A stretch of DNA of 64,000 nt from positions 19,253 to 83,252 of the forward strand of contig JAZDMB010000046.1 of assembly GCA_043801445.1 (NCBI GenBank), read 5' to 3'. The position numbers and the translations under genes were made by a program. Shown here piece by piece: positions 7,173-62,685 of the stretch (position 1 is the stretch's first letter; every line of letters starts with the position of its first letter). Under the pieces are notes generated by a model that saw only the letters and a program-made list of their open reading frames with translations, was not told the DNA's origin and ran no database searches. The DNA comes from Planctomycetota bacterium (GTDB lineage Bacteria > Planctomycetota > MHYJ01 > JACQXL01).

Positions 7173-9254
7173 ATGCGGATGCAGTTAATAAATATCCTCA
7201 AACGGATTTATAACCCGTTGCTCACCAAACAGTTTAAAATAAGTTTGATAGCAATGGTTTATCTTTTAATCTGCTATACGTTATTGAGGCTGGGATTCTT
7301 TCTGGTAAATCACGGTTTTTTCAGTGATATTGGAACCGGTGAAATTATCCGGGCATTTCTCTACGGCATCCGTTTTGACATATCTGCCCTATTAATGATT
7401 AACGGCCCATTATTACTGCTTTATAATCTTCCGCTTAAATTAATCAATCGGAAATATTTCAAACTTATTCTACTGGTTCTATTCTTGTTATTAAACCTGA
7501 TATTCATCACCGTCAACTTAGCCGATTACGGTTATTTCCCGGTCACACAGCGCCGGTTGATGTCTGAGATTTATATTATGTTTGTTGATATAATGAGAAT
7601 GTTACCGAGTATGTTCTCTGATTACTATTATCTGTTTTTAGCGCTGGCAGTTGGCGGAATGATATTTATATTTACTGTCTGGCGCCTATTTAAAAAATTG
7701 GATAACTTAATCATCTACCAGCCCAATTTATGGCGAGATATTGGATGCCTTATCCTGTTAATCGGATTAATCACAATAGGAGTAAAAGGCGGTATTCAGA
7801 GAAAACCTATCCGTCAGGCGCATGCCTTTTGGTCTGCCAATCGGATTACCGGATACCTTACTCTGAATTCATCATTCACTACAATAAAAAGTCTCTTCCA
7901 AGCCGGTTTACCGCGTCATAGTTTTTTACCTGACAACGAAGCATCAGCAGAGTTAACCGCAATGCTGTGCCAGAAAAATGAGCAGATGATTGATGCGCAA
8001 TATCCTTTTCTGCGCCGGAAATCATTCCCGGACGCTCCCCAAAAACCAAATCTGGTTGTCTTCATTATGGAAAGCTGGACAGCAGATTATATCGGCTCTC
8101 TCTCCGGACAGACGCCATCCGCCACTCCTTTTTTTGACAGTCTTACAATAAGCGGCACGCTATTTACCAACTTCTTAGCCAATGGCCACCGTTCGGTCGT
8201 GGCTATACCATCCATTCTTGATTCTATTCCCGGTTTTTACTCCAACTCTCTTTCAGGCGTAGCCGCAGCGAAGTCCCGATTATTTCGGGGAAAAGGAAAC
8301 TCATTTATAGAATCACAATCTGAAGTAAATAACTACATCGGATTAGGTAACATATTGCTCAAGCAAGGGTACACCACCTCGTGTCATCATGGTGCCCGCC
8401 GAGGAGCGCTGGGTTTTGATATCCATTCGAAACTTTCAGGTTTTCTCAATTATTATGGTATGGAGGATTACCTGAAGTCCGGCGGTTCCAGCCGTGATAC
8501 GGTTTGGGGCGTGTGGGATGAGGAGTTTTTCCAGGATGCGCTATGCCGGATGGATAAATTCCAATCGCCTTTCTGCTCGGTGATATTCTCGCTCACTTCT
8601 CATGAACCCTTCAGGATTCCGCCGCACCGGCAAAAGTTATTCGAACAATATGCCGATGAAACCAATCTCCAGATAGCATTGCGCTATTCCGATTACAGCC
8701 TGCAACAATTCTTTCAAATAGCCCGGAAAAAACCATGGTTTGAAAACACTATTTTCATTATTACAGCCGACCATACCACTCATTCCAAAATGAATAATTT
8801 CTATTCCTGCTTCCATATCCCCCTATTGATTTATGCGCCCCGATGCTCCGATACGGGGCGTCCCGACCGAAGCGTCGGAGCGCCCGGATTGATTGCCCCG
8901 CAAATATGCAATACAATCGGCTCTCAGGTGGATATCCTGCCCACCATTCTGGACCTCTTGCATATTTCTGCCACTCACAACTCAATGGGTTCCTCGCTCA
9001 TGGATACTGAACGCACGCATTATACCGTGGTTACTGACGGTTCTATGTATGGAATTTTCAACAACCAATTTGTCCTGCTCAACGACCTTGAGAAAAACTT
9101 CGGATTATATAATTATCATCTCGACCCTATCTTGAAAAATGATATTCAGATAGAATATCCGGACGCAGCGCAAAAGTTAAGACACAGTCTCCTTGCCTAT
9201 ATCCAGTCTGTGTCCAATGCCATTGCCCAGAACAAAATCTGCCCGCCCCGTTAG
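7173..9254 (+). CDS. LTA synthase-family membrane sulfatase/phosphotransferase
   Basis: N-terminal TM segments; NLVVFIMESW, SHEPF, ITADH and SQVDILPT motifs; carries repeat insertions. Confidence 0.85.
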   Translation: MRMQLINILKRIYNPLLTKQFKISLIAMVYLLICYTLLRLGFFLVNHGFFSDIGTGEIIRAFLYGIRFDISALLMINGPLLLLYNLPLKLINRKYFKLILLVLFLLLNLIFITVNLADYGYFPVTQRRLMSEIYIMFVDIMRMLPSMFSDYYYLFLALAVGGMIFIFTVWRLFKKLDNLIIYQPNLWRDIGCLILLIGLITIGVKGGIQRKPIRQAHAFWSANRITGYLTLNSSFTTIKSLFQAGLPRHSFLPDNEASAELTAMLCQKNEQMIDAQYPFLRRKSFPDAPQKPNLVVFIMESWTADYIGSLSGQTPSATPFFDSLTISGTLFTNFLANGHRSVVAIPSILDSIPGFYSNSLSGVAAAKSRLFRGKGNSFIESQSEVNNYIGLGNILLKQGYTTSCHHGARRGALGFDIHSKLSGFLNYYGMEDYLKSGGSSRDTVWGVWDEEFFQDALCRMDKFQSPFCSVIFSLTSHEPFRIPPHRQKLFEQYADETNLQIALRYSDYSLQQFFQIARKKPWFENTIFIITADHTTHSKMNNFYSCFHIPLLIYAPRCSDTGRPDRSVGAPGLIAPQICNTIGSQVDILPTILDLLHISATHNSMGSSLMDTERTHYTVVTDGSMYGIFNNQFVLLNDLEKNFGLYNYHLDPILKNDIQIEYPDAAQKLRHSLLAYIQSVSNAIAQNKICPPR

Positions 9255-9346
9255 AAAGACCCGTAATGAGTTCGTCAGACAAACTATTGTTCTCACCTTT
9301 ATTATTGGACTTTCTAACGGGGTGAAGATGCATCAATGTCTTGCTA
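9243..9346 (+). mobile_element. MITE-like element, CCCCGTTAGAAAG...CTTTCTAACGGGG plus a 3' tail (copy 1)
   Basis: 13-bp perfect inverted repeats bounding 9246-9322; flanked by CTGC/CTGC; same length as the purL copy. Confidence 0.7.
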
Positions 9347-9395
9347 CTGCCGTGAGCGCGATATTAAATAACAACCGATAACCATCTCATCATCT

Positions 9396-9426
9396 ATCCC
9401 TTACGGGATACTATTAAACCGAATAC
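9396..9426 (-). repeat. Dispersed repeat GTATTC..TTAATAGTATCCCGTAAGGGAT
   Basis: Copies also at about 23196-23226 and 54983-55014; partial copy at about 34066. Confidence 0.75.
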
Positions 9427-9650
9427 TGTCAGGTATCAGATAATTATACTTTTACTTGCGGTATAGGAAAGTATAAAAAAGTAAGCGGATTCAGCTAATT
9501 TAACTGTATTGAAGACTTATTTCTATGCTATTTAATATGCTTAATCAGTTTTATCTGCTTAATCAGTTTACTAATTTCTTGACAATTATTACGATTGTTT
9601 GGAATAATTTATCATTAATCTAATTAAACTTATCAATAATAAAATAAGGA

Positions 9651-11180
9651 GTGTCTATGGCAGTTATTCTTGACGGCAAACATCTGACGATTGAAGACGT
9701 GGTAAAGGTTGCCCGCAACTATGCAAAAGTGGAATTGCATCCGGCGGCTATAGAAAGAATAAATGTCTGCCGGACAATGCTTAACGAAAAAATAGAGAAC
9801 CACGAAATAATGTACGGCGTTACGACCGGCATCGGCGAATTTTCAGAAGTGGCGTTAACACCCGAGCAATCCGAGAAATACCAGAAATATCTTATCTATT
9901 CACACGCCGCCGGTATCGGCGAACCCATACCCGAAGATGCGGTCAGGGCTGCGATTCTGTCAAGAATCAACGTGCTCTGCAACGGCCTTTCAGGCCCGAG
10001 ATTAATCATCGTCCAGACACTGGTTGAGATGCTCAATAAAGGCGTCACGCCGGTGATGTGCCAGCGCGGTTCGGTCGGCGCCTGCGGTGATTTGTCTCCG
10101 ATGGCTCAGATGGCTTTAGTCCCGATGGGCGAAGGCGAGGCATTTTATAAAGGCAAAAGATTACCCGGCGCTGAAGCTATGAAACAGGCCGGTATTCCCA
10201 CCATTAAGTATGAACAAAGAGACGGATTAGCATGCATCAACGGCTCTAATGTCATCACCGCTATGGGCTGCCTCCAATTATATGATGCGGACCAATGGCT
10301 CAGAACCCATGATATTGCCGCGGCTATGACGCTGGAAGCAATCAATGCCAATATGAAGGCATACGACGACCGATTACATCAGGCGCGCGGTTATCCCGGT
10401 TCTATTACCTGCGCTGAAAATATCAGACGGCTGACCGAAGGCAGCGAACTCCTGCAGCGCAAAGGCAAAAAGGTCCAGGATGCCTACAGCCTGCGCTCTA
10501 CGCCTCAGGTAGCCGGCGCCGCCAAGGATACCTTTAAATTCTCTCGCCAGATGTTTGAGATTGAACTCAACGGCGTGGGCGATAATCCACTCTTCTTCCC
10601 CAAAGATAAAACCGTCATAACCGGCGCTAATTTCCAGGGAACACCGCTGGCATTCGCCCTGGAGTTTTTAGGCATTGCCATAACCACGGTCTGTGTCTTA
10701 TCGGAACGAAGACTTAATAGACTGCTTAATTCGCATCTCTCGCAGGGATTACCGTCATTCCTGACCAAAGGCGCCGGAATGTTCTCAGGTCTGATGCTAT
10801 CACAGTATACGGCCGGCGCATTAGTCTGCGAAAACAGATGTCTCTGCACCCCGGCGGCTGTTGGTTCTATCCCGGCTGCGGCTGACCAGGAGGATTTTGT
10901 CAGTATGGGTATGACCAGCGCCATCAAGACCCGCCAGATAATAGATAATGCCTATGGAGTTTTAGGAATTGAGTTTATCGCAGCGGCCCAGGCATTTGAT
11001 TTCCGAGCGCCGGTTAAACCGGCTCCGGCAACTAAAGCGGCTTATGATGTCATCCGCAAGTATGTCGCTCATCTTGAAGAAGACCGGCCTCTATTTGATG
11101 ATAACAACGCTATGGTAAAAGTCGTCCGTTCAGGCGAAATACTTGCTGCAGCGGAAAAAATTACCGGAAAACTTAAATAA
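9651..11180 (+). CDS. hutH: Histidine ammonia-lyase
   Basis: YGVTTG, LIYSHAAG, GSVGACGD, VQDAYSLR, QEDFVSMG; adjacent to hutU. Confidence 0.9.
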   Translation: MSMAVILDGKHLTIEDVVKVARNYAKVELHPAAIERINVCRTMLNEKIENHEIMYGVTTGIGEFSEVALTPEQSEKYQKYLIYSHAAGIGEPIPEDAVRAAILSRINVLCNGLSGPRLIIVQTLVEMLNKGVTPVMCQRGSVGACGDLSPMAQMALVPMGEGEAFYKGKRLPGAEAMKQAGIPTIKYEQRDGLACINGSNVITAMGCLQLYDADQWLRTHDIAAAMTLEAINANMKAYDDRLHQARGYPGSITCAENIRRLTEGSELLQRKGKKVQDAYSLRSTPQVAGAAKDTFKFSRQMFEIELNGVGDNPLFFPKDKTVITGANFQGTPLAFALEFLGIAITTVCVLSERRLNRLLNSHLSQGLPSFLTKGAGMFSGLMLSQYTAGALVCENRCLCTPAAVGSIPAAADQEDFVSMGMTSAIKTRQIIDNAYGVLGIEFIAAAQAFDFRAPVKPAPATKAAYDVIRKYVAHLEEDRPLFDDNNAMVKVVRSGEILAAAEKITGKLK

Positions 11181-11190
11181 GAGAATACTT

Positions 11191-11311
11191 AACCACAAAG
11201 AACACAAGGAATTCTTGGTGACCTTTGTTCACTTTGTGGTGAAAATTAATTTTATCTTGGTTTCATGGCCTGCCTGCGCGAAGCCTTCGGCGAAGGCACG
11301 GTCTCCTTCTA
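11191..11311. repeat. Intergenic palindromic cluster (CACAAAG/CTTTGTG hairpin plus composite element)
   Basis: 11252-11311 is a near-exact reverse complement of 56161-56218. Confidence 0.8.
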
Positions 11312-11347
11312 GAAATTATCTGTGGTTTTAAACGGAGAAATTATTTT

Positions 11348-13018
11348 ATGGAATACGAACCTGTTCAAGCTCCGCGCGGCACGAAAATCTCCTGTAAATC
11401 ATGGCAGACCGAAGCGCCGATGCGGATGCTGATGAATAATCTCGACCCTGAAGTAGCCGAAGACCCGAAGAATCTGGTGGTCTACGGCGGTTCAGGCAGA
11501 GCCGTCCGCAATTGGGATTGCTTCCACAAGATTGTAAAAATACTGAAAGACCTTAATGATGACGAAACTTTATTAGTCCAATCCGGCAAACCGGTCGCGG
11601 TATTTAAAACCCACGAATTTGCGCCCAGGGTCCTGATTGCCAACAGCCTGCTCGTTCCGGCCTGGGCGAACTGGGAATATTTCCGTGAACTGGAATCAAA
11701 AGGTCTGACGATGTACGGACAGATGACAGCCGGCAGTTGGATTTATATCGGGACCCAGGGCATCTTACAAGGCACATACGAAACGTTCGCTGCCGCGGCT
11801 GAAAAGCACTTTTCCGCCAAAGGCGGATCCGCCTCTGGAGGACAAGGCAACCTCAGAGGCAAATTAGTCGTCTCAGCCGGCTTGGGCGGTATGGGCGGCG
11901 CACAGCCTCTCGCGGTTACTATGAATAAAGGCGTTTTTCTGGGCATAGAAACAGACCCGGAACGGATTATGCGCCGCATCAAAAACGGATATTGTAATAT
12001 CATGGCTGAAAGACTGGATACTGCCCTACGACTGGTGCGTACTGCCAAAAAGAACCGCGAACCGCTTTCAGTCGGACTGGTCGGTAACGCCGCTGAAATA
12101 CTGCCTGAAATGGTCAAGCAGGGCGTTGTGCCTGACCTGGTAACAGACCAGACCTCGGCGCATGATACGCTCAACGGCTATATCCCCAAAGGATTATCTC
12201 TGGAAGAAGCCAAAGCGCTGCGTAAATCCAATCCAAAAAAATATATGCAGTTGGCTGTTGAATCCATCGTCATCCATACTAAGGCAATGATTGATTTGCA
12301 GAAGATGGGCTCAATCGTATTTGAATACGGCAATAATATCCGCCAGCAGGCAAAATTAGGCGGCTTGTCAAATGCCTTTGATTTCCCCGGCTTTGTGCCG
12401 GCTTATATCAGACCGCTTTTCTGTGAAGGCAAAGGACCATTCAGATGGGTAGCGCTATCCGGCGACCCCAAAGACATCTATACCACCGATGAAATAATCT
12501 GTAAGAAATTCAAGTCTAATAAGAAACTGGTCCGCTGGATAAAAATGGTTCGGGAAAGTATCCAATTCCAGGGATTACCGGCGCGGATTTGCTGGCTGGG
12601 ACAGGGCGAACGCGCCAAATTCGGCGAAATTCTCAATCATCTGGTTAAGACAGGCAAAGTATCGGCTCCGATTGTCATCGGCAGAGACCATCTGGATACC
12701 GGCTCGGTCGCATCGCCATACCGCGAAACAGAAGGAATGAAAGACGGCAGTGATGCCATTGCCGACTGGCCTATTCTCAATGCCCTGCTCAATACCGCTT
12801 CAGGCGCCACCTGGGTATCGGTTCATCACGGCGGCGGTGTGGGCATCGGATATTCCATACATGCCGGTATGGTTACAGTAGCAGACGGCACAAAATTGGC
12901 ATCCAAAAAACTGGCGCTGGTTCTTAATAATGACCCGGGTATCGGCGTAGTTCGTCACGCTGATGCCGGCTATGAACAGGCGATTCAGACCGCACAGCAA
13001 CATAATATAAGAATGTAA
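11348..13018 (+). CDS. hutU: Urocanate hydratase
   Basis: [41 protein letters not shown]. Confidence 0.97.
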
Positions 13019-13056
13019 ACATCAATCGGAATCCGTCACATCAAAAGTTAATAATG

Positions 13057-13969: not shown

Positions 13970-13975
13970 GATATT

Positions 13976-18284: not shown

Positions 18285-20402
18285 TTACTCTGCATTCTGG
18301 TAACAAATCTTCATAAACGCTTCAGACAATCTCTTACAAAGCGCTATATTTCCTTCACTTTCTCCTAAATCAATATCTGATAACTTAATTGTATCACGAT
18401 TCTTCTTTAACCATACACTCCATAACTCATAATCTGATTTAGTTGGTACATCATTGCTAATACTGGCCAATAAACTCAAGGTTATAAAAGAATCCTCTCG
18501 TACCTTCTCAAAATATCCCCCTTCTGCTTTCAGTAGGACAACCAGATATTCTACGCCTCTAACGTCTCTATTCCGGAATAAGCATTCGGCTAAAGCCCGC
18601 CTTGCCCTTAAAGAATCTTTTAGATTCTCATGCTGGAAAAGATTAGCAATGACATCACTATCTTCCTTTGTCAAATATGTTGGGATAAAGGTCGCACCCC
18701 TAAAGCGGATCTGTTCATCTTTGGTAGTTTCCAACAGTTTTACTAAAGGAGGCATCAAGTCCCGTCCGCATAACCCTATCCACATCTGTGCTTCTGAAGA
18801 CGAGAACCCTTTCATTTGACCGGTCAAGACACGTTGTAGTCCTTGGCTACAGGCATCCACTGCCATTTTCTCATTAGTTTTCTTCAGACGCAAGTAAGCT
18901 ACCACAAATTCACCCGGGCTATACAACGCCCCTTTCGTCAGGAAATCACTGAGTTCTTGCTCCTTCATACCCTTAATTTTATCATAATTGCCAAAACTCG
19001 CCCTTAACACAAGATTTTGCAGATATTGCTCAAAGAAATTCTCCGGTGCTTTTGGTGTGGCTTTACTAACACTGAAGCATTTCCAATTGCCATCCTTAAA
19101 TTGCCAAAATCCTTCTTGAGAACCTACCCAGATAGAACCATCTTTGCCTTGAATAATTTGACGACAAAGATTATTTCCAGGTATTTCTTTCCCCTTCAGC
19201 ATACTTATCTTATTACCCTTGATTACCACAGGTTTATCCCTCAATATTAGCCAGATATCTCCATTACTTGCTTGCAAATATGATTTAACTCCCCCATGCC
19301 CTTCAGGAGCAAGGTGGATTTGTTCCCCATCAAATCTGAACCCACGCCAATTATCAAATAGCCAAATACTGTTATCCGACGAATAAAATGACACATTCAC
19401 AGATATTTCATCATAGGGTTTAGGAAAAGAAATTTGCTTCCATTCTTTGCCATCCCAAGATGTTGCGCAACCTCTACCGAAAAACCATAATTTACCATCT
19501 TTGGTTTCAAGAATCTGGCAGGTATAACCAGGGTCTTTGTACCATTTATAGGTATTATCAGCAAACTCGGCTACACCGTACATATCACCCACCCACACCG
19601 TCCCATTAATTGCCTGATAGAACGCTATCGGACCACTATTCAGCAATTTCTCCCACTTATTCCCATCAAACCTGAACAATGCAGGCCAGACCTTTGCCCA
19701 AATCATACCGTCCCGGTCAAGATACCAATCATAGAGCATGGACTGCATCTTGTCATCCACAAAAGCGTTTTTCCATTGCTTACCATCAAATAGCCGGCCA
19801 CCCCTTTGTCTAAGAAAAATATATCCGTTTTTAGATACCAGCCAATTCTTCCAGACGGTTTTATTTGCAATAAACGCCTCATATTGAGCGGCAATTGCCT
19901 CTTCGTCAGAATTAAATATATCATGGAGGACATTATTCTTGAATATGGCTGAACCGTTAAATGTATCTGCCCAGATGCGTCCATCAGCCAGAACATAAAT
20001 ATTCTTCACGGTATTCTTAGTCCATCGCTGAAAATACCCCTTGCCGGTTTCGGTTCTTGGTTGAGGTGTTTTTCCGCCAGCGAAATACTCTTTTTCCACA
20101 TTTTCAGGCGTCCAGTCTTTTTCAATAGGTAATATTTGATATGCTGATTCTTTAATATTCCACACCACCACACCACAAGAAGTCCCGGCGACAACATAAT
20201 TATCTCCTATTAATGCAAGACATCTCACATCGTCATAAGAAGGCTTCTGCATAAGGTCACCATAGTTAAGCGAAAGATACTTGTCATCATACGGCATATC
20301 CGTTAGGAATACATGATCATTATTATCCCCAGTAAACGCGAGAGCTGAAAATAATGACAGTAAAACCAACACTCTAACTGATATGCTAAAAAGTTTTATC
20401 AT
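18285..20402 (-). CDS. Secreted beta-propeller protein with C-terminal HEAT-like domain
   Basis: Signal peptide; repeated DG.IW/FDG..W blades. Confidence 0.6.
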   Translation of the reverse strand: MIKLFSISVRVLVLLSLFSALAFTGDNNDHVFLTDMPYDDKYLSLNYGDLMQKPSYDDVRCLALIGDNYVVAGTSCGVVVWNIKESAYQILPIEKDWTPENVEKEYFAGGKTPQPRTETGKGYFQRWTKNTVKNIYVLADGRIWADTFNGSAIFKNNVLHDIFNSDEEAIAAQYEAFIANKTVWKNWLVSKNGYIFLRQRGGRLFDGKQWKNAFVDDKMQSMLYDWYLDRDGMIWAKVWPALFRFDGNKWEKLLNSGPIAFYQAINGTVWVGDMYGVAEFADNTYKWYKDPGYTCQILETKDGKLWFFGRGCATSWDGKEWKQISFPKPYDEISVNVSFYSSDNSIWLFDNWRGFRFDGEQIHLAPEGHGGVKSYLQASNGDIWLILRDKPVVIKGNKISMLKGKEIPGNNLCRQIIQGKDGSIWVGSQEGFWQFKDGNWKCFSVSKATPKAPENFFEQYLQNLVLRASFGNYDKIKGMKEQELSDFLTKGALYSPGEFVVAYLRLKKTNEKMAVDACSQGLQRVLTGQMKGFSSSEAQMWIGLCGRDLMPPLVKLLETTKDEQIRFRGATFIPTYLTKEDSDVIANLFQHENLKDSLRARRALAECLFRNRDVRGVEYLVVLLKAEGGYFEKVREDSFITLSLLASISNDVPTKSDYELWSVWLKKNRDTIKLSDIDLGESEGNIALCKRLSEAFMKICYQNAE

Positions 20403-21086: not shown

Positions 21087-22763
21087 TTAGAATATCACGG
21101 CTCCTTTATATTCTCCAAAGACATCTCTAAGACTCTGCGAGATTTCTCCTAATGTGGCATTAGATTTGATTGCCTCAATTATCGCCGGCATAAGGTTGTC
21201 TTTGGATTGAGCAATTGTTTTCAGGTTGTTTAATGAATCAATTACCAGTTTGTTATTTCTGTTTTTCTTATACCGGTTAATTTTGGCTACCTGTTTTTTC
21301 TGTAATGCAGATGTAACCTTCAATGTATTGATTTTATACGATTCCTTAGCGGTAAATTTATTAACACCGACAATGATGCGCCGGTTATTTTCTATTTCCT
21401 TTTGATATTCATAGGCGCTCCTGGAGATTTCTTTCTGATAGAATCCGGTTTCAATGGCTTTGGTCGCACCGCCCAATTTGTCAATTTGATTGATATAATC
21501 AGTTGCTTCAATTTCTAATTTATCCGTGAGATTTTCCAGATAATATGAACCGCCCAATGGGTCAATTATCCGGCTGACCGCTGTTTCATAAGCGATGAGT
21601 TGCTGTGTTCTCAACGCAATCTGGACTGATTTTTCGGTCGGTAATGCCAATGCTTCATCGCGGGAGTTGCTATGCAGGCTCTGTGTTCCGCCAAGCACCG
21701 CAGTCATCGCCTGTAAGGCAACACGGGTAACGTTATTATCCGGCTGTTGAGCGGTGAGGGTGCAGCCGGCTGTCTGGGTATGGAAACGCAGCATCATTGC
21801 CCTCGGGTCGGTTGCCTTGAATCTTTCCTTCATAATCTTTGCCCAGAGCCTTCTGGCGGCGCGGAATTTGGCTATTTCTTCAAAGAAGTCGTTATGGGCA
21901 TTGAAGAAAAAAGATAATCTTTTACCGATTTCATTTACCCCGTTAGAAGCGTCCGATGCAGAAGCATTAAGATTACCGGTAGATTTATCCTTTTTATCGT
22001 GTTCGCTTCTAACGGGGTTTATATCAAGCCTCCGTTCGAGGCAGGTTTTTACATAACTGATTCCGTTGGCTAATGTGAATCCGATTTCCTGAGCCGCGGT
22101 TGAGCCGGCTTCCCTGATGTGATAACCGCTGACGCTGATAAAATTCCATTTCGGCAGGTTCTTAATGCAATATTCAATAGTATCCACAACCAATCTCAAG
22201 GACGGTTCAGGCGGGAATATATAGGCGCCGCGGGCAATGTATTCCTTGAGGATGTCATTCTGGACTGTTCCGGAAATATCAGCCACTTTGACTTTTTGTC
22301 TTTCTGCGAGGACCAGATACATTGCCAGGAGAATGGCGCAGGTGGCGTTGATGGTCATTGAGACGCTGATTTTGTCAAGAGGAATCTCGTCAAACAGGAT
22401 TTCCATATCAGCCAGAGAAGAGATATTGACGCCGGTTTTGCCTACTTCGCCGAGGCTCATCGGATGGTCTGCGTCATAGCCCATCTGGGTGGGTAAATCA
22501 AAGGCAATACTCAGACCGGTTTGGCCACGTTTGAGCAGGAATTTACAACGACGGTTGGTTTCTTCAGCCGTTGCGAATCCGGAGTATTGCCGCATTGTCC
22601 AGAGTTTGCCTCGATACATCGTCGGATGAACGCCACGAGTGAAAGGATATTCACCGGGCAAGCCAAGTTTATCCAGACCCTGAACAGAAGGGCTGGGTTC
22701 AGCAATGTCTTCCCCGTCTCGACGGGATTCCTTTGTCGGGAGTGGCGAATAAAATTGCTTCAT
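21087..22763 (-). CDS. Methylmalonyl-CoA mutase, substrate-binding subunit (split type)
   Basis: [34 protein letters not shown]; no B12-binding domain. Confidence 0.92.
21938..22017. mobile_element. 80-bp MITE-like element in frame in the mutase
   Basis: CCCCGTTAGAAGCG...CGCTTCTAACGGGG flanked by TTTA on both sides; 84 nt = 28 aa. Confidence 0.85.
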
Positions 22764-49048: not shown

Positions 49049-49061
49049 AAAGTACTCCTTG

Positions 49062-49141
49062 CATCGTTAGAAGCGTTCATAAAGGTTGGTTAGAACATAG
49101 TAACGGTTTAGAATTATTGCTTTTGTTCGCTTCTAACGGGA
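49062..49141. mobile_element. Intergenic 80-bp MITE-like element (same subfamily as the mutase insert)
   Basis: CGTTAGAAGCG...CGCTTCTAACG with a 52-nt interior. Confidence 0.7.
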
Positions 49142-49168
49142 TGAGAAGCTAACAAAACTTACTACTGC

Positions 49169-52100
49169 TTACCACCTTAATGGTTTCTGCCATGATTCCT
49201 TAAGATCTGATAGCGATTCATCAATGATTAACGAATTATCCAAGCCTTTAACTTTAAGCATTTTCTCCTTAATGGTTTTACCTATCAATCCGAAAGGGCA
49301 ATCAGCCATAAGTTTTTCAAAATCCGCCTTATGTTCAGGTTTAATTTCTACCAAGAAACGAGAATTGGATTCTGAGAAAAGAATAATATCATCCCTAATG
49401 GCGGTTAGCGATGAACGGTTAGCGGTGAGCGCCGCTGACCGCTCAAATGGCACAGCGGTAGCAAGGCACTGCTGCATCTTCACCCCGTTAGAAAGTCCTC
49501 CATTATGTTTTAATTCATCACTTATATCTTTATCATCATTCGTGTTCTTTCTAACGGGGCAGGCGGAAATATCAATCTCAAGTCCGACATCACCGGCAAA
49601 AGCCATTTCAGCTGCAGATACTGCCAATCCGCCTTCTGATAAATCATGACAGGCAGATACAAAACCCTTACGAATCGCTTCTGAAACAGCAATCATTATC
49701 TGACGTCCAAGCACAGCATCCACCTGAGGCACATTCTTTCCCAAATGACCAAGCAGGTCATAATAATGCGAACCTCCTAATTCATTATTGGTCATTCCGA
49801 CAATATATATTAAATCGCCGGCTTCTTTGATGTCCATTGAAACAGTTTGACGCACATCATCAATCACAGAAATAGCTGATATTAATAATGAATATGGAAT
49901 AGAAATAGTCTTTTTGGCTGAAACCCTATATTCATTATTGAGACTATCTTTTCCCGAAATAAAAGGTGTTTCATAAATATGTGCGATATCATAACAACCT
50001 TGAGCGGCTCTGACAATAGCGCCTAATTGTTTGGGATTACCCGCATTCCCCCAGCAAAAATTATCCAATAAAGCGGTCTGTTGAGGATTGCCGCCTACGG
50101 CCACGATATTTCTTAATGCCTCATCAATTGCAGATGCGGCCATATGATATGGGTCTATATCGCCATATTTTGGATTCATACCGTTTGATACGCAAAGTCC
50201 GCGATAAGAATCTAAAATCGGCCTGAAGACACAGGCATCTCCGGGCCCATCATTATTCTTGCCCTGTAACGGCTTAAGCACGCTGCCACCCTGAACCTCG
50301 TGGTCATATTGCCTGATGACCCATTCCTTAGAACATATATTCAGCATTGCCAGAATTTGATTTAAGATTTTACCAAAATCTTGAGAAGGCATAAATTCAG
50401 GCTCTTTTAACTTAGGCTCAGACCATTCAGCCGATAATTCCATCTTCGGTAAACCGTTATGTAGAAACTCCATTTCCAAGGTGCCCACTAAATTACCGTT
50501 GTATTTCAAAACCAATTTTTTATCATCGGTGAATCGTCCGATAATAGTGGCTTCTACACCTTCACGATTAAACAATTCCAGAATATCTTTCTCGTATTTG
50601 GGCGGAACAGATAAAACCATCCGTTCCTGCGCTTCAGAAATCCAGATTTCAGTATAAGACAACCCCTGATATTTAAGAGGCACTTTTCCCAGTTCAACGA
50701 TACATCCAAGGTCTTCAGCCATCTCCCCAACAGCGGAAGAAAGCCCACCGCCACCGCAGTCAGTTATAGCAGAATAATAACCCAAATCTCTTGCTCGCAG
50801 TAAAATATCCATCATCTTTTTTTCTGTGATGGCGTTCCCAATCTGGACCGCACCGGAAGAAATCATTTCAGACTTTTCATCCAATTCGAGCGATGCAAAA
50901 GTAACACCATGAATACCGTCACGACCTGTTCGTCCGCCGACTAAAAGTATCAAATCACCGGACTGCGAATGCTTGAAACATTTATTCCTGGGCATAATGC
51001 CTATCGTTCCGCAATATACAAGCGGATTAGCCAGATACCGGTCATCAAAATATAGCGCTCCATTCGCTGTCGGTATGCCCATCCGGTTACCATAATCCCT
51101 GACACCGGATACAACACCTTTGAATATCCTTTTAGGATGAAAAACACCATCCGGTAATTTTTCTAACGGGAAAGATGGTGAGGCGAAACAGAAAACATCA
51201 GTATTCAAAATAGGTTTAGCACCCAACCCGCAACCAAGCACATCCCTAATAACTCCGCCGATACCGGTCCCGGATCCGCCATAAGGCTCTATTGCCGAAG
51301 GATGATTATGAGTCTCCACTTTAAAACAAACCGCATTATTCTTATCGAATTCAATAATGCCGGCATTATCCTTAAACACAGAAATACACCACGCCTTATT
51401 TAATTCGTTGGTTACCCGCATCACGGTTTGTTTTAGAAGATTATCTATCTTTTGGGTAGTGATTTTACCGCCAGCTGATTCCACCTGATATTTAATAATG
51501 CCTCTCAATGTTTTATGCTTGCAATGTTCACTCCAAGTCTGAGCAATAGTTTCCAGCTCAATGTCAGTCAGATTGCGTTGCTGTTTAAGAGAATAGTCCC
51601 TGATGGTTTTCATCTCATGCACATTTAATGAAAGATTCCGATTCTTACTGATTGTAAAAAGAGCATCATCGGACACATCAATTAGAGCTATCGTATCTAA
51701 TTTAAATGAATACAAAGGTGCATCCGGTATTTCGGCGAGCATTTTATGACCAATAAAAACATTCTCTATGACGTTATTGGCAAATATCTTTGAAGAAAGC
51801 CGAAGGATATCATTATGTGAAATATTCCCGTTGATATAATATTTACGACCTGTCCGAACAGATTTGATTCTGAACCCGGAATCATTAATGGCTTTAAGAA
51901 GACTTGATTCTACCGGGTCCATTACGCCCGGTTTAAGAAATACCGTAACCACCTGATGAGCGTCATTCTTAAATATTTCCAACGGTTTATTTATAGAATA
52001 TTCTTGAACCGTCTTATCAGAAAGAATATCGCCGGAAATAATATCGACATCACCATCAATTAACTCACCGTCCAAAACATAGATAGAAACAAAACGAACA

Positions 52101-52204
52101 TCATCAATACCCGCAACTCCGAACTCAATAATATCCTGCTTGACAAATGCGCCAATCGGGTCTGGCAATCCCGATTTCAGAACAACCTCTATCTGATAAA
52201 TCAT
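49169..52204 (-). CDS. purL: Phosphoribosylformylglycinamidine synthase PurL with PurS-like N-terminal domains
   Basis: QTWSEHCKHK, VETHNHPS, GRDGIHG, QYDHEV, SGKDSL, HDLSEGGL. Confidence 0.96.
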   Translation of the reverse strand: MIYQIEVVLKSGLPDPIGAFVKQDIIEFGVAGIDDVRFVSIYVLDGELIDGDVDIISGDILSDKTVQEYSINKPLEIFKNDAHQVVTVFLKPGVMDPVESSLLKAINDSGFRIKSVRTGRKYYINGNISHNDILRLSSKIFANNVIENVFIGHKMLAEIPDAPLYSFKLDTIALIDVSDDALFTISKNRNLSLNVHEMKTIRDYSLKQQRNLTDIELETIAQTWSEHCKHKTLRGIIKYQVESAGGKITTQKIDNLLKQTVMRVTNELNKAWCISVFKDNAGIIEFDKNNAVCFKVETHNHPSAIEPYGGSGTGIGGVIRDVLGCGLGAKPILNTDVFCFASPSFPLEKLPDGVFHPKRIFKGVVSGVRDYGNRMGIPTANGALYFDDRYLANPLVYCGTIGIMPRNKCFKHSQSGDLILLVGGRTGRDGIHGVTFASLELDEKSEMISSGAVQIGNAITEKKMMDILLRARDLGYYSAITDCGGGGLSSAVGEMAEDLGCIVELGKVPLKYQGLSYTEIWISEAQERMVLSVPPKYEKDILELFNREGVEATIIGRFTDDKKLVLKYNGNLVGTLEMEFLHNGLPKMELSAEWSEPKLKEPEFMPSQDFGKILNQILAMLNICSKEWVIRQYDHEVQGGSVLKPLQGKNNDGPGDACVFRPILDSYRGLCVSNGMNPKYGDIDPYHMAASAIDEALRNIVAVGGNPQQTALLDNFCWGNAGNPKQLGAIVRAAQGCYDIAHIYETPFISGKDSLNNEYRVSAKKTISIPYSLLISAISVIDDVRQTVSMDIKEAGDLIYIVGMTNNELGGSHYYDLLGHLGKNVPQVDAVLGRQIMIAVSEAIRKGFVSACHDLSEGGLAVSAAEMAFAGDVGLEIDISACPVRKNTNDDKDISDELKHNGGLSNGVKMQQCLATAVPFERSAALTANRSSLTAIRDDIILFSESNSRFLVEIKPEHKADFEKLMADCPFGLIGKTIKEKMLKVKGLDNSLIIDESLSDLKESWQKPLRW
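49459..49562 (-). mobile_element. 104-bp MITE-like element in frame in purL
   Basis: Inverted repeats bounding 49483-49559; CCGC/CCGC flanks; 108 nt = 36 aa. Confidence 0.8.
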
Positions 52205-57461: not shown

Positions 57462-57567
57462 TTAGTTGTTCATTCACCGCAGATACGCAAAGATGTTAAG
57501 TTAGAAGTTAAAGGTTAAAAGTCCTAACTTTTTACTTACTACTTTTTACTTTTAACTTTATTATTCC

Positions 57568-59436
57568 ATGAATCAATACGATATCATTGTCGTCGGCGCC
57601 GGACACGCCGGGATAGAAGCCGCTTTGGTTTCTGCACGGATGGGTTGTTCCACGCTTCTTTTAACCATCTCTTTTGATTCTATCGCCCAGATGTCTTGTA
57701 ATCCCGCAATCGGTGGTTTAGCCAAGGGCCAGTTGGTTCGTGAGATTGATGCTCTGGGCGGTGAAATGGCTCGCGCCACTGATTATTCGGGCATCCAATT
57801 CCGTATTCTCAATACCGGTAAAGGTCCGGCTGTCCAATCTCCCCGCGCCCAATGTGATAAAAAAGAATATCACCTTTATATGCGAAAGGTATTAGAAAAT
57901 CAGGATAACCTTACTCTCAAAGAGTTGATGGTTGAAGAGATTATTGTGGACCATAATAAAGTAGTTGGTATTAAATCCCAAATCACAAATCTCAAATCTC
58001 AAATCCCGAATGAATATTACGCCAAGGCAGTCATCATCACCACAGGCACTTTTATGAAAGGGCTGATACATATCGGCGAAGAACAGTTCCCCGGCGGCAG
58101 AATCAACGAGCCGTCAGCCGAAAATATTTCAGCAAGTTTAAAGAAGATTGGATTGGAATTGGGACGCCTTAAGACCGGCACTCCCCCACGACTTGATACC
58201 CGAACCATAGATTATTCAAATCTGAGAGTTCAAAACGGTGATGAACCACCCAAACCTTTTTCATTCTCTACTGACCGAATTACCCAAAAACAGATTCCGT
58301 GTTATATAACTCATACCAATAAAAATACACACGAGATTATCAAGAAGAATTTACACCGCGCACCGCTTTATACAGGGCAGATTAAAGCCATCGGCCCGCG
58401 ATACTGCCCTTCGATTGAAGACAAGATAGTCAGATTTGCCGAGAGAGACCAGCACCAGATTTTTCTTGAGCCGGAAGGAAAAAACATTCATGAAGTCTAT
58501 TGTAACGGTATCTCAACCAGTCTGCCCCGTGATGTGCAGGAAGAAATGGTCCATTCGATTGATGGTTTAGAAAAAGCTAAATTTATCCGCTACGGCTATG
58601 CCATAGAATATGATGTGATCTTACCATATCAGATAAAGCCATCGCTTGAAACCAAGAAAATAGAGAATCTCTTTTTGGCAGGCCAGATAAACGGAACATC
58701 AGGTTACGAAGAAGCCGCAGCTCAGGGAATTATGGCTGGTATCAATGCTGTATTGAAAATCAGGAAAGAACCTGCCTGCGCCGAGGCTTCGGTAGGCAGG
58801 CCTCTTTTTATGCTCTCCAGAAGTGATGCCTATATCGGCGTCTTGGTAGATGATTTAGTAACACTGGGACCAACCGAACCGTATCGGATGTTCACTTCGC
58901 GCGCCGAATACCGCTTGCTACTGCGTTCCGACAATGCCGATAGACGTCTGATGCCTTACGCATTTAAGTTGGGGTTGCTCAATAAAGAACTACAGCACAG
59001 ATTACATAGTAAAGAAGAACTCATACAGAAAACAATCACTTTATTAAATAAATCATTTTCTAATGGTAAATCATTCAAAAGACTATTAAAACAACCTGAA
59101 ATCAGGCTTAAAGAATTAGAAGAAAAATCAAAACAATTACGATTACTGAATCTTACCGATGACATAAGGGAACAGGTTGAAATCGAAGTCAAATATGAAG
59201 GCTATATCCAGCGACAATTGCGTCAGATTGAACGGGCTAAGAAAATGGAGGATTATTTATTACCAGCCGAATTTGATTACAATAAAATAAAACATCTCAG
59301 CAAAGAAGCCAGGACCCAATTAAACAAATTCACGCCGTTATCCTTAGGCCAGGCAAGCCGTATCGCCGGCGTATCACCGGCAGATATTTCAGTTCTTATG
59401 ATATATTTCCTGAAGAAAAATAAAACCGCTGATTAA
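57568..59436 (+). CDS. mnmG: tRNA uridine-5-carboxymethylaminomethyl modification enzyme MnmG
   Basis: GAGHAG, MSCNPAIGG, KTGTPPR, GPRYCPSIEDK, GYEEAAAQG, RMFTSRAEYRL. Confidence 0.98.
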   Translation: MNQYDIIVVGAGHAGIEAALVSARMGCSTLLLTISFDSIAQMSCNPAIGGLAKGQLVREIDALGGEMARATDYSGIQFRILNTGKGPAVQSPRAQCDKKEYHLYMRKVLENQDNLTLKELMVEEIIVDHNKVVGIKSQITNLKSQIPNEYYAKAVIITTGTFMKGLIHIGEEQFPGGRINEPSAENISASLKKIGLELGRLKTGTPPRLDTRTIDYSNLRVQNGDEPPKPFSFSTDRITQKQIPCYITHTNKNTHEIIKKNLHRAPLYTGQIKAIGPRYCPSIEDKIVRFAERDQHQIFLEPEGKNIHEVYCNGISTSLPRDVQEEMVHSIDGLEKAKFIRYGYAIEYDVILPYQIKPSLETKKIENLFLAGQINGTSGYEEAAAQGIMAGINAVLKIRKEPACAEASVGRPLFMLSRSDAYIGVLVDDLVTLGPTEPYRMFTSRAEYRLLLRSDNADRRLMPYAFKLGLLNKELQHRLHSKEELIQKTITLLNKSFSNGKSFKRLLKQPEIRLKELEEKSKQLRLLNLTDDIREQVEIEVKYEGYIQRQLRQIERAKKMEDYLLPAEFDYNKIKHLSKEARTQLNKFTPLSLGQASRIAGVSPADISVLMIYFLKKNKTAD

Positions 59437-59493
59437 ACGGATTTCTGCCTAATCCGCCAAATCTGCGGTTAAAATGGATGCAGGCCGTAATGA

Positions 59494-60852
59494 TTAGTAT
59501 CTCCTTTTAATATATCTCTTAATAGTACGTATCCCCAAATATCTATAGCCATCGGTCAAAGCCGTTGTCAGACCGCCGTTATAATTAATATTAGCATTGC
59601 CACCAATGTCAACATCCACAGTACTACTGCTGGTAACCAAAGAACAAGTATCCTCTTTATCTTCAGCAATTACGCATCCATTAACGGTTGGAGTACCTAC
59701 AAGACTTACCTGTTCATGAGCAGCAAAAAGACCGACAAGAGCGCTGGAAGTAGAACCTCTCATCTTTAAATCTTTTCCAGACATGCAGGCAATATTACCA
59801 CCGCTTGGATGAGGAGATATACAAGGACTTCCCGACATCTCAATATACCCTTCCGCCAAGACACTTACCGGCCATGGAGTAGCTATTGAACCGGGAGAAC
59901 TGGTTATTTTCACATTACCACTCTCAAAATAAAATACGCCACTATCTGTTATACCGGTACCACTTCTACTCCAGAGTTGAGTAGCCGCAGCATAACTCCA
60001 ACCGGTTGGGGTAGCAAGAAGATTATTAAACTGGTCATAAACTTTGCCATCGGTCTTAAAAATATGGGTGCCTAAATATTTGTAAGTAGCCGGATTAATA
60101 GGTGGAATATAGGTAGCAGGAGCATAAGGTGTAATGGTTCCTCCAACAGTACCGGTGTTGTTTACAGCGCCTGTAGAAGTCACATCTCCGGATATATTTG
60201 CACTACCTGATACAGTAACCGGACCATTTGCCTGGATATCGCCTTCAGCACCGGTAATGGAAGCATGACCATATACATTAAGCGAACCACCCACTACCAA
60301 AGCGCCGCTAGCTATATAATTTGCTTCTTTATATTGGATTAATCCTTCAACTACCTGTGTTTGCGAACGTTGCAGAGGGTCATTACCGCCACCCCAGCCC
60401 TCAACCGTAATTTTAACAATATTATCTTTATCAACTAATGCGCTGCCGCCTAAAGCAGTATCGTCATTATTTTCTAATTTAACCCAAAAGGTGTTGCCGT
60501 AATAATTAATATTTCGGCACCATTGAATAGAAGTGGAAAGAGAAGTAGGTGTTATATTAAGAGAAGTTGCAGAAGCTGCATAAGTACCGGAAGCAGTGTT
60601 GCTGACACTGAGTTGAGAGCTCCAACAACCTGTTGTTGTATATGATTGAAGCAAATAAGCAGAAGATGCTTCAAATCCACTTAAGGCAGTCTGTTGATAA
60701 CTTTGGTCATCAATAGAAGACGTAAGTTGTTGTTGTTGAGCGCCTGAGGTTAAAACAAAAGCAATACCTAATCCGGCAATAATTACCGTGATAAGCATAA
60801 CTAAAACCATTATAGCCCCTTTTTCGTTCTTATTATTGCACATAGAATACAT
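59494..60852 (-). CDS. PilX-like minor pilin with C-terminal beta-helix-like domain
   Basis: KGAIMVLV N-terminal helix; last gene of the pilin trio. Confidence 0.7.
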   Translation of the reverse strand: MYSMCNNKNEKGAIMVLVMLITVIIAGLGIAFVLTSGAQQQQLTSSIDDQSYQQTALSGFEASSAYLLQSYTTTGCWSSQLSVSNTASGTYAASATSLNITPTSLSTSIQWCRNINYYGNTFWVKLENNDDTALGGSALVDKDNIVKITVEGWGGGNDPLQRSQTQVVEGLIQYKEANYIASGALVVGGSLNVYGHASITGAEGDIQANGPVTVSGSANISGDVTSTGAVNNTGTVGGTITPYAPATYIPPINPATYKYLGTHIFKTDGKVYDQFNNLLATPTGWSYAAATQLWSRSGTGITDSGVFYFESGNVKITSSPGSIATPWPVSVLAEGYIEMSGSPCISPHPSGGNIACMSGKDLKMRGSTSSALVGLFAAHEQVSLVGTPTVNGCVIAEDKEDTCSLVTSSSTVDVDIGGNANINYNGGLTTALTDGYRYLGIRTIKRYIKRRY

Positions 60853-61015
60853 CCTTAAAATCAGCCACCCCGCTTGGGCGGGACTCCGCTGTCGCTTCGC
60901 AGACCCGTCCCGATGAATATCGGGAGAACACAGAGAAAGAAATTAAATTTAATTATCCGTGTTTATCTGCCTGCCCGACCTTTCGGTCGTTCGGGCGGGT
61001 GGTTACGAAATATTA

Positions 61016-61873
61016 TTATTGCGGATTTAACAAAACCACATCGGTTTTACAATCAACTATTATTGGTTTTTGTCCGGCACCGAGTACGCCACCGAACCAA
61101 AGATTGATTCTGACCCGATTACCATTACTACCGCTGGTAACCAAATTATTATTCTTATCACGGAGACTGAATATCGGGTCATTTGCTCCATCATTATTAA
61201 TATCAAGATATCTATTAGTCGCAACGGTTATAATATTACCGCCTAAATTTACCTGTTCTTGAAGAACACCCCCTGCATTATATACGTATTTCCATAAATT
61301 ACCTGTATCAAAAGAATCTATAATATCTCCATCTCCATTATAATCTAAATGCGTGGTGGCTTCAACAAGATTGGGAGTTGGATTATTCGGCACAAAATCA
61401 TATATAATATACCAGTTCTGATTGTCATTTGCGCCCCAGTATATTGCGCCTGTTGCAGGATCCCAGTAGTTACCTCCGACCTTTACCGGAACTTTCAGGG
61501 TAAGAGTCGCATAATTATTAGATGTAGTGGGCATACTTCCTGTTATAACAAAGCATTCATTTATATCTTCTTTTATAATGTCTGTTAGTCGCATCCCTTC
61601 AGATTCCAAGTAAGACTCCATTGCTCCCTCAGTATATATATTCTGTGAACTTATAATAACATACATTGCTCCAACAAGCATACCGGTCAGTATGGTTACT
61701 ACTATCATAAGCTCAATCAAGGTAAACCCCGTTAGAGATAGGTCGCCCGTAGGCGACCGTTCTGTCTTATAAACAATAGTTTTATCCTTCTGGGACGGAT
61801 TATATAAGAGTTTACCAATAGTTGCTTTAGACATCTCTAACTGGGTAAACCCTTCTTGCGAATTAGTATTCAT
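61016..61873 (-). CDS. Prepilin (PilW/GspJ-like) with a repeat insertion in its leader
   Basis: GFTLIELMIV motif preceded by a 41-aa insert. Confidence 0.8.
   Translation of the reverse strand: MNTNSQEGFTQLEMSKATIGKLLYNPSQKDKTIVYKTERSPTGDLSLTGFTLIELMIVVTILTGMLVGAMYVIISSQNIYTEGAMESYLESEGMRLTDIIKEDINECFVITGSMPTTSNNYATLTLKVPVKVGGNYWDPATGAIYWGANDNQNWYIIYDFVPNNPTPNLVEATTHLDYNGDGDIIDSFDTGNLWKYVYNAGGVLQEQVNLGGNIITVATNRYLDINNDGANDPIFSLRDKNNNLVTSGSNGNRVRINLWFGGVLGAGQKPIIVDCKTDVVLLNPQ
61727..61845. mobile_element. 119-bp MITE-like element at the prepilin G-F-T site
   Basis: CCCCGTTAGAGAT...ATCTCTAACTGGG flanked by TAAA/TAAA. Confidence 0.85.
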
Positions 61874-61875
61874 AA

Positions 61876-62358
61876 TTAGTATCTGTTATGCCTGGAAAAA
61901 ATAGTCCTTGTTACATACTCATTATATACGCTTGCACTAGTATTCCCTTTTATTCGCCATCTAACAGTAATTTTAATGTCATAAAGTTTACACGCGGATA
62001 GATTATTATGACAACTACTACCAGAACCATCAAGATTGGTGCCGTGGTCGCTGCATTGAATTTGTTCTATCCTGCCGGCTTGTGTCCAGCCGGTAGGAGC
62101 AGTCAAACCGGTCACCGCAAAATAAGTTCCGCTTATACCATGAATAGACGTAAAATCTTTGCCTCTAACCTCTTCTAGTTGAGCCGCAGCAGCATTGCGA
62201 GCAATATCATATTCTCGTGATGTTTCTTTCTGCAATACCCCCCCACTCAATACCGATAATAAAGTCAAAGTTCCAATGGTCAACAATACCATTGCTATTA
62301 TTACCTCTATAAGTGTAAAACCTGAAAAACAAACTTCACTGGTCGTATGATTTCTCAT
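61876..62358 (-). CDS. Prepilin (PilV/GspI-like)
   Basis: GFTLIEVIIAM. Confidence 0.8.
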   Translation of the reverse strand: MRNHTTSEVCFSGFTLIEVIIAMVLLTIGTLTLLSVLSGGVLQKETSREYDIARNAAAAQLEEVRGKDFTSIHGISGTYFAVTGLTAPTGWTQAGRIEQIQCSDHGTNLDGSGSSCHNNLSACKLYDIKITVRWRIKGNTSASVYNEYVTRTIFSRHNRY

Positions 62359-62581
62359 AATCTTTTATTTAACAATACAGAAAATTATAAACACGAATAG
62401 CGCGAATTCGGTGAACAACACGAATATTAAAATATAATTCCTTATTCGCGTGATTCGTGTTCCTATTTTTCTTATCCCTTAAACCCTTTGTAATTATACA
62501 CACCAGACAGACCGTTGTCAATAGAAAAATCAAAGAATCTATATAAGCAGCTAAAAGTTCCAACTTTTTACTTGCTACTTG

Positions 62582-62685
62582 CCCCGTTCGAAAGTACCAT
62601 AATTAGAGATAAAGATAAACATATTAGTCTTTCACCCCGTTCGAGAACTTTCTAACGGGCTGAAGATACAGCAAAAACCTGCTCT
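62582..62685 (+). mobile_element. Degenerate copy of the tailed MITE-like element
   Basis: CCCCGTTCGAAAG...CTTTCTAACGGGCTGAAGATACAGCA. Confidence 0.65.

Follow-up and report, generated by a model that had tools for sequence, protein, structure and literature searches.

What are the short repeats with conserved ends and divergent interiors that recur along a stretch of planctomycetal DNA, and what moves them? The stretch, a window of 64,000 nucleotides (positions 19,253 to 83,252 of contig JAZDMB010000046.1; GenBank assembly GCA_043801445.1), belongs to the genome of a Planctomycetota bacterium assembled to 2.31 Mb in 62 contigs, here called G000, in which it corresponds to G000:C19:19253-83252. 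A sequence-only reading of the window had described six such repeats as elements of fixed length and had proposed either a ruler-like constraint, i.e., paired protein sites at a fixed spacing, or an interior that is actively diversified or captured, as in a spacer or guide. We find that the repeats belong to a family of about 80–90 miniature non-coding mobile elements in G000, which resembles miniature inverted-repeat transposable elements (MITEs) and is tied to a tiny unit encoding a GIY-YIG nuclease. Both their insertion and their persistence in frame within genes are directly evidenced, and the shared ends point to a bacterial jumping gene of a kind that is very small and has been little described.

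The terminal inverted repeats of the family are 13–15 bp long and start with CCCCGTTAGA, which occurs in the window 14 times with at most one mismatch against 2.96 times expected, a number reached in none of 100 shuffles. All six copies are present at the positions and with the lengths first described: 9246-9322 (77 bp), 21938-22017 (80 bp), 49062-49141 (80 bp), 49483-49559 (77 bp), 61727-61845 (119 bp), and 62582-62660 (79 bp). Two perfect 10-nt ends are found in just three of the six, the imperfect ones being 49062 (ends CATCGTTAGA...TCTAACGGGA), 61727 (lower-strand end CCCAGTTAGA), and 62582 (ends CCCCGTTCGA...GCCCGTTAGA, the latter on the lower strand). The divergence of the interiors and the tail common to 9246 and 49483 were both confirmed: ungapped, these two copies match at 20 of 51 interior positions, as had been estimated by eye, and 21938 and 49062 match at 19 of 52, while the gapped figures are 27/53 and 35/60, respectively.

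An enzyme gene bracketed by the same ends, for which the sequence-only reading had suggested a search, lies on another contig of the genome. The unit, of 279 bp, spans C12:55470-55748 and has its repeats 277 bp apart. Its sole gene is an open reading frame (ORF) of 86 amino acids (MFYTYVIRS...KRFLSLTG), the product of which, a GIY-YIG nuclease and not a known transposase, consists of a single GIY-YIG domain (Pfam PF01541, E 1.5e-14, residues 1-68) with no further domain. The right repeat encodes the final residues (..LSLTG), the stop codon is supplied by the flank, and TTTA stands on both flanks. Residues Y3, Y5, Y16, G18, R26, H30, and E62 are invariant in 11 homologues. Among solved proteins, the nearest by profile are the UPF0213 protein 1zg2 (E 1.6e-13) and 1ywl, followed by SLX1; the NCBIfam match to group I intron endonucleases is weak (24 bits, cut-off 56), and a search of the protein against a phage collection gave one weak match of 37% identity. 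Besides this one intact gene, G000 has a truncated second copy on contig C24. Exact repeats 200–6000 bp apart enclose nothing else in the genome; the only further pair in this range, spanning 932 bp, belongs to two separate copies. The remaining small GIY-YIG genes of G000 lie beside tRNA genes without these repeats and are at most 28% identical; three of them (G000:C25:22780-23250, C3:16200-16620, and C52:31380-31760), all lacking CCCCGTTAGA repeats, are flanked by short CCCGAC..GTCGGG or CCCCGATG..CATCGGGG hairpins, in one case in triple tandem.

The genome has a coding and a non-coding form of element with the same ends, and the short copies are probably non-autonomous derivatives of the GIY-YIG element that rely on its nuclease. 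Insertion and family structure can be read directly from the genomes; unlike these, the causal role of the nuclease and the chemistry of insertion are matters that we infer, and on balance we favor the GIY-YIG protein as the enzyme that moves the copies. In such a scheme, the ends would be kept since the enzyme must recognize them, the interior, having no role in movement, would drift or be replaced, and the length clusters would reflect both the descent of the subfamilies from a few founders and the persistence, among copies landing in genes, of only those that stayed in frame.

The genome-wide census does not bear out a fixed length. Exact matches to the 9-mers CCCGTTAGA and TCTAACGGG number 88 and 99 in the genome, compared with about six expected per strand, and form 64 exact-end pairs within 400 bp. 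Taken from CCCGTTAGA to TCTAACGGG, six of these measure 60–68 bp, 41 measure 75–81 bp, 11 measure 115–123 bp, and six measure 132–294 bp. Allowing up to one mismatch gives 82 non-nested pairs, mostly of 60–125 bp, short and non-coding, and dispersed over the genome with no regular arrays. Overall, lengths from 35 to 277 occur with the same ends, and this spread contradicts a ruler at fixed spacing; continuous length variation had been named as the result that would speak against the original proposal, and the 41 pairs of the main cluster fill every value from 75 to 81. The paired sites at fixed spacing thus fall away, while a constraint specific to the ends stands, with recognition by a protein as its likeliest cause.

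The interiors, too, point to ordinary descent. At a threshold of at least 70% interior identity, 33 of 61 short copies fall into five subfamilies (11, 6, 6, 5, and 5 members), within which lengths vary by 1–3-bp indels and, once, by a 10-bp deletion. When these five subfamilies, together with four copies recovered via their interiors only, were compared with the subfamily consensus, differences amounted to 40/962 (4.2%) over the 13+13 end positions and to 244/1872 (13.0%) over the interiors, so that the ends change about three times more slowly. Transitions dominate the interior changes, and 98 of 244 start from A, which makes up 40.8% of the interior; since changes from A match the A share, a signal like that of diversity-generating retroelements is absent. 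Compared with the rest of the genome, the interiors match other copies only; one copy searched against a phage collection and one against a plasmid collection gave no match, and Rfam gave no match at gathering score on the whole window. An interior that is diversified or captured (as spacer, guide, or by a retroelement-like process), or a length set by a protein ruler, would account for the pairs of window copies with equal length and very different interiors, but given subfamilies by descent, variable length, no adenine bias, and matches to other copies only, we regard it as very improbable.

The conservation of the ends is real but less strict than it first appeared. A search seeded with interiors led to 99 places, of which 80 were already known by their ends; among the other 19, about ten are copies with two or three end mismatches or with an end missing, and about seven belong to an unrelated repeat. 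The apparent perfection of the ends is therefore partly due to the copies having been located by their ends; with three of the six window copies imperfect and eroded copies present elsewhere, it is clear that the ends decay as well, at a slower rate. The premise that MITEs would erode evenly over ends, length, and interior is itself unsafe, because only copies with working ends multiply. A separate hairpin repeat family (..CCACAAAGAACACAAAG...CTTTGTGGT..) occurs at G000:C56:4043-4149 and seven other places and is once nested between CCCCGTTAGA-type ends. A lone TCTAACGGG also lies in a region present twice (C21:36182 and C5:287), which was considered as an insertion sequence and rejected, as it consists of ordinary paralogous genes.

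Insertion is seen in a simple class of elements (35/82 copies) that span CCCCG to CGGGG. An exact 4-bp direct repeat (TTTA, TAAA, TCAA, TTAA, and others) flanks 12 of the 35, compared with 1.6 on average and at most 6 in 1000 random re-pairings of the flanks. One example is the 80-bp element 21938-22017, which lies on the minus strand (21934..22021 including its flanks) in frame within the gene for methylmalonyl-CoA mutase (MCM; 21087-22763, minus strand; Pfam MM_CoA_mutase). Its flanks are TTTA on the plus strand (21934-21937 and 22018-22021), equivalent to TAAA on the gene strand, where the target reads A|TAAA|T; the 80 bp and the second TAAA make up 84 bp and add 28 amino acids in frame (..RRLDI[28 aa]NEIGKR..), whereas the orthologues of all ten relatives examined read ..LDINEIGKR.. 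without the insert. The insertions are thus precise, with a 4-bp duplication and empty sites in relatives. In-frame status was compared with homologues for MCM and for the PurL case described below. Among 92 loosely defined pairs, 15 lie in a reading frame that stays open over at least 100 codons on both sides. Two 120-bp copies of a long class (G000:C46:3683-3802 and 4226-4345) lie 420 bp apart in the same open frame.

The remaining copies form a tail class, in which the hairpin module is preceded by YTGC and followed by a tail of about 24 nt ending in CTTGCTA-CTGC, giving a unit with a modal length of 108 bp that reaches past the repeats. For 30 of 49 copies the unit length is divisible by three, a count that overstates the effect because the copies are related. 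The window contains four of them. The 108-bp unit 9244..9351 (plus strand) consists of CG, the 77-bp module 9246-9322, a 24-nt tail (9323-9346) ending in CTTGCTA, and a CTGCC (9347-9351) that is also found directly before the unit (9239-9243). The unit lies at the 3′ end of a sulfatase-family gene (7173-9254; Pfam Sulfatase), the ORF of which now stops within the element, while in a relative of the same genus, G001, the 3′ end of the gene reads aaaatCTGCCgagaacgc, an empty site that lacks the 108 extra bases of G000. The second unit of 108 bp (49454..49561, minus strand; module 49483-49559, tail 49459-49482) lies in frame in a gene for a PurS-PurL-type FGAM synthase (49169-52204, minus strand; Pfam AIRS, AIRS_C, and PurS), to which it adds 36 amino acids (CPVRKNTNDDKDISDELKHNGGLSNGVKMQQCLATA). 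This 36-aa (108-bp) insert is absent in 11 of 11 relatives examined, and G001 reads ..ISSLPFSTGSQKRDDIILFSE.. at the site. Beside this unit (49390-49453, minus strand), PurL carries about 30 more extra bases (..CGCTCACCGCTAACCG..CGCTAACCGCC..) that are lacking in G001, and similar strings occur elsewhere in the genome.

The other two tail-class copies in the window are intergenic and on the plus strand. Copy 49062..49168, with the eroded left end CATCGTTAGA, its module at 49062-49141, and its tail reaching to 49168 (..AAAACTTACTACTGC), stands immediately after the PurL stop codon; its interior, through which it was itself recovered, is 86.5% identical to that of copy C10_5772, and its subfamily also occurs in other genera, with near-identical interiors in the relatives G004 and G006. 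Copy 62582..62686, from subfamily 3, has degenerate ends, a second internal CCCCGTTCGA at 62635, and the tail CTGAAGATACAGCAAAAACCTGCTCTG. At three places the tail comes after a short hairpin of another kind, and one hairpin subfamily includes copies that carry the tail as well as copies that lack it (the MCM copy versus C11_36967). A 5-bp duplication, suggested by the empty site in G001 and its CTGCC, was tried as a model for the tail class and rejected: no more than 7 of the 49 copies conform to it, and the CTGC on the right seems to belong to the unit itself. Between 44001 and 63900 of the window, contigs from four groundwater metagenome runs end at elements (49114, 49534/49571, 61730, and 62654), so the repeats fragment short-read assemblies of this organism; none of the joints listed for these contigs skips exactly one element, which is uninformative on polymorphism or expression.

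How the ends might be recognized is indicated by their pairing. A perfect terminal stem of 12 nt (median) is joined by an outer C:G pair, and complementarity of the arms extends past the common 10 nt into positions 10-13, which differ by subfamily (AGCG, AGTG, GATA, AATG, and others). These four positions are fully complementary in 33 of 81 copies, with eight different 4-mers, compared with a mean of 7.1 and a maximum of 15 copies upon random re-pairing. In folding of single-stranded DNA, the terminal stem dominates (z-scores −3.0 to −5.8) and the interior is mostly open. Arm co-variation and fold together favor pairing of the ends, or a copying process that homogenizes them, over two independent protein sites. 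By analogy with the Ssn nucleases discussed below, which cut beside hairpins, we raise as a possibility, less probable than the role of the enzyme itself, that the nuclease sees the ends paired as a stem in single-stranded DNA and would cut at the base of that stem.

The link between gene and repeats was followed in a comparison set of 41 genomes (40 relatives and G000). Repeat pairs are present in 13 of these, including G000, all from the same order, and a nuclease homologue of at least 60% identity was found in 7 of the 13 genomes with pairs and in none of the 28 without. At all nine homologous loci of relatives at this identity, the left repeat lies 0–25 nt upstream of the ATG, and at eight the right repeat overlaps the last codons, being further off in locus L007. 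The full unit stands at different loci in different genomes, with other locations in G001 and G005, and is absent from the orthologous site in G004, where homology resumes within about 10 nt of its right end.

A scan of a public genome collection returned 590 confirmed relatives of the nuclease, of which the best 80 (49–85% identity) were analyzed. Going by their record titles, these 80 loci represent Planctomycetota, Omnitrophota, many Patescibacteria, Clostridia, Nitrospirota, Thermodesulfobacteriota, Gammaproteobacteria, and others. Both canonical repeats are found at 48 of them, and an exact inverted repeat of at least 10 nt surrounds the gene at 60, compared with a median of 6 and a maximum of 9 in a shuffled control. 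Where the ends deviate, they are altered on both arms (TTACAG/CTGTAA, TTTGAG/CTCAAA, TTAACAG/CTGTTAA, TACGAAAC/GTTTCGTA, ATAGTGTC/GACACTAT, and CCCTGTTAAATA/TATTTAACAGGG), even though one arm is coding and the other non-coding. Across phyla, then, gene and repeats occur together, and a change on one arm is mirrored on the other. In the genome of 0.6 Mb with a GIY-YIG gene that bears the variant CCCGATAGTGT, this variant is present 60 times, frequently paired at a spacing of about 108 bp, and it is missing from four other genomes; canonical miniature pairs occur in two of the distant variant-end genomes. Full units are 274–284 bp long at 46 of 51 loci, and an exact 4-bp repeat flanks 14 of 51 (random re-pairing: mean 3.5, maximum 10). 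Many of their right flanks start with TAA, TGA, or TAG regardless of the left flank, which fits a requirement for a stop codon.

Some of these loci show further arrangements. In Patescibacteria (L063, L065, L068, L069, and others), the ends are T-CCCG...CGGG-A with a duplication of TGAA or TGAG, often on the start codon of the next gene, which by reading of the right flanks is topA (twice), murA, or trmD. More distant GIY-YIG genes at L024 (in G005) and L009 (in G008) are bracketed by another inverted repeat, CCCCGCACA(N)..TTGC, and at L009 a second copy of this repeat follows directly, which hints at a second pair of enzyme and repeat.

Several observations weigh against the GIY-YIG protein as the mover of the whole family. 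Kinship among the relatives means that the counts across genomes are not independent. Six relatives with pairs gave no homologue of at least 60% identity, including G008 (63 pairs, 92% complete) and G004 (30 pairs, 96% complete), and both nuclease copies in G012 look broken. Of the five variant ends tested, the four other than CCCGATAGTGT have only two to four copies each in their own genome and no miniature copies, so that four of five variant-end genomes lack them, and G041 has miniature pairs with canonical ends while the GIY-YIG gene found there carries another variant. The tail class comprises over half of the copies (47/82, or 49 by a second definition); it shows no convincing duplication, with exact 5-mers at 7 of 49 copies against a random maximum of 5, and no tail stands beside any GIY-YIG gene in 30 loci (L001–L030). 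Finally, GIY-YIG enzymes hydrolyze DNA and we know of no strand-transfer intermediate for them, which leaves the insertion step without a mechanism.

These points lend some weight to a different mover, i.e., an unrecognized DDE transposase or a Y1/HUH enzyme (RAYT- or IS200-like) acting in trans on the copies, with the GIY-YIG gene as a passenger or free-riding homing gene. G000 has three Y1_Tnp transposase-like genes (at C14:16304, C58:40594, and C43:3706), the copy-rich relatives without a close GIY-YIG homologue could be understood in this way, and the tail class lacks a duplication, as do IS200/IS605 elements. REP/REPIN repeats, which are moved by RAYT, show the same combination of conserved hairpin arms and freer spacer (cited in the Discussion of PMC11893778). 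However, within 1.5 kb of the three Y1 genes, neither the repeats nor the tail form a bracket around any of them, a lone left repeat with one mismatch near the C43 gene being all that occurs, and apart from two neighboring copies only the GIY-YIG unit is enclosed by exact repeats 200–6000 bp apart. A passenger, moreover, would not keep its C-terminal codons in the repeat nor co-vary with both arms across phyla, and we consider a mover other than the nuclease unlikely. The Y1 genes have conserved 5′ ends in common and flanking repeats of their own.

The closest known system is that of the Ssn nucleases and their SRM repeats (Chenal et al., Nat Commun 2025; PMC11893778), to which the present family adds behavior like that of MITEs and of Rickettsia palindromic elements (RPE). 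As described in that paper, Ssn are single-domain GIY-YIG proteins of about 94 amino acids (CDD cd10448), the genes of which are flanked by hairpin repeats (NTS/SRM) scattered genome-wide in tens to hundreds of copies, with Rickettsia among the SRM-rich genomes. The enzymes cut only single-stranded DNA, beside the hairpin, enzyme and repeat vary jointly between lineages, and the authors note a layout like that of insertion sequences and a parallel with REP/RAYT (PMC11893778). The likeness is evident in a small single-domain GIY-YIG gene (86 aa here) flanked 5′ and 3′ by the repeat of its genome and in the co-variation of enzyme and repeat. In contrast to Ssn, each flank is here one arm of a terminal inverted repeat that bounds a 279-bp unit, with the right arm coding, and the copies measure 60–125 bp with 13–15-bp stems and large loops, whereas SRM are compact hairpins of 20–50 nt. 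Target duplications, empty sites, non-autonomous derivatives, and in-frame insertions further set the present family apart; 'target site', 'duplication', 'MITE', 'Planctomyc', and 'Patescibacteria' are all absent as terms from the main text of PMC11893778. The degenerate motif published for SRM occurs neither in the unit ±70 nt nor in the copies ±40 nt and is found nine times in the genome against 12 in a reversed control; the elements are therefore not SRM as defined. Among these nine matches are four near-canonical Neisseria-type NTS repeats (TGTCATTCCCG[CT]G...CGGGAATCCAG), all outside the window.

The Ssn precedent also raises the prospect that the repeats are now immobile host sites, which together with the nuclease would govern recombination or the uptake of single-stranded DNA, a role put forward for NTS and SsnA in Neisseria, or would act as structural or regulatory hairpins. 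A single intact nuclease gene alongside many repeats, and the presence of the same interior subfamily in three genera, would fit such a host role, but insertions differ between species of one genus, copies lie within essential-type genes, and eroded copies are present; we consider this role unlikely, and somewhat less probable than a mover in trans.

The family can also be compared with other known elements. With MITEs it shares small, non-coding, multi-copy members, terminal inverted repeats, the short duplication of the simple class, and subfamilies that share their ends with a coding element; unlike in MITEs, the coding partner is a GIY-YIG nuclease and no known transposase, the arms co-vary in a way that points to pairing, and over half of the copies are embedded in a 108-bp unit without clear duplication. 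REP/REPIN-RAYT systems likewise have paired inverted arms around a less conserved spacer, vary little in length, and have an enzyme gene in single copy between its own repeats, but that enzyme has the HUH and not the GIY-YIG fold, the simple class here has a target duplication, and the Y1 genes of G000 are not flanked by these repeats. Homing endonucleases of the I-TevI type also use a GIY-YIG catalytic domain in a selfish element, whereas here there is no separate DNA-binding domain and no intron or intein, and many unrelated sites and non-coding derivatives are found. RPE (Ogata et al. 2000), which the family resembles in behavior, occur in another phylum, and to our knowledge no enzyme partner has been established for them. 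In the literature accessible to us, which included few subscription journals, we found no GIY-YIG unit described as combining terminal inverted repeats with a target duplication and miniature derivatives.

The long-class copy in the window shows how closely an insertion can fit its host gene. The 119-bp element 61727-61845 (61723..61849 with its flanks, minus strand) lies in frame in a prepilin-like gene (61016-61873, minus strand), in this case as judged by motif, and has an inner hairpin GGTCGCC-CGTA-GGCGACC adjoining one end and a 4-bp duplication, TAAA on the plus strand and TTTA on the gene strand. It sits inside the G|FTLIE motif, giving MNTNSQEGFT[41 aa ..SLTGFT]LIELMIVV; as the insert ends in ..SLTGFT and the target TTTA lies within GGG-TTT-ACC, the G|FTLIE site is rebuilt. 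The neighboring ORF 61876-62358 carries a Pfam N_methyl motif. In G001 (L141:1730-2000, compared with window 61640-61900), a different long-class element with the inner hairpin GTCCCGAC..GTCGGGAC and the flanks TTCA stands about 25 bp away in the orthologous gene and is an independent insertion in the same gene start.

Full units, too, are found at this motif, in 5 of 89 rows (86 distinct places) of the locus collection (L033, L034, L053, L058, and L060), where the nuclease ORF continues, with no change of frame, into that of the mature pilin (..LSLTG|FTLIE..); in the pilin frame, duplication and repeat spell GFTPLEI, which is near the pilin motif. That the nuclease is released as the leader peptide of the pilin is speculation. 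In its fullest form, the reading that we propose is that the unit of about 280 bp, comprising two inverted repeats and an 86-aa GIY-YIG gene, might be a self-sufficient transposon of a new enzymatic class and the smallest autonomous one in prokaryotes, spread over Planctomycetota, Omnitrophota, Patescibacteria, and other phyla, which would seed miniature copies that survive in genes by staying in frame and which in some hosts, at the prepilin motif G|FTLIE, would have its nuclease made as a removable pilin leader. We put this whole forward tentatively, with somewhat less than even confidence.

The elements bear on genome annotation as well: housekeeping enzymes gain 28–41 in-frame residues from them, and metagenome assemblies are broken where they lie. 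If the nuclease does move the elements, the family would represent a class of transposon beyond those based on DDE, HUH, serine, tyrosine, and Cas1 enzymes, with a unit of less than 300 bp, and many natural pairs of nuclease and site would become readable from matching end variants. The function of hairpin repeats was left open in the work on Ssn in Neisseria, Wolbachia, and Rickettsia (PMC11893778); mobility of the kind proposed here would offer an account of how such repeats come to flood genomes.

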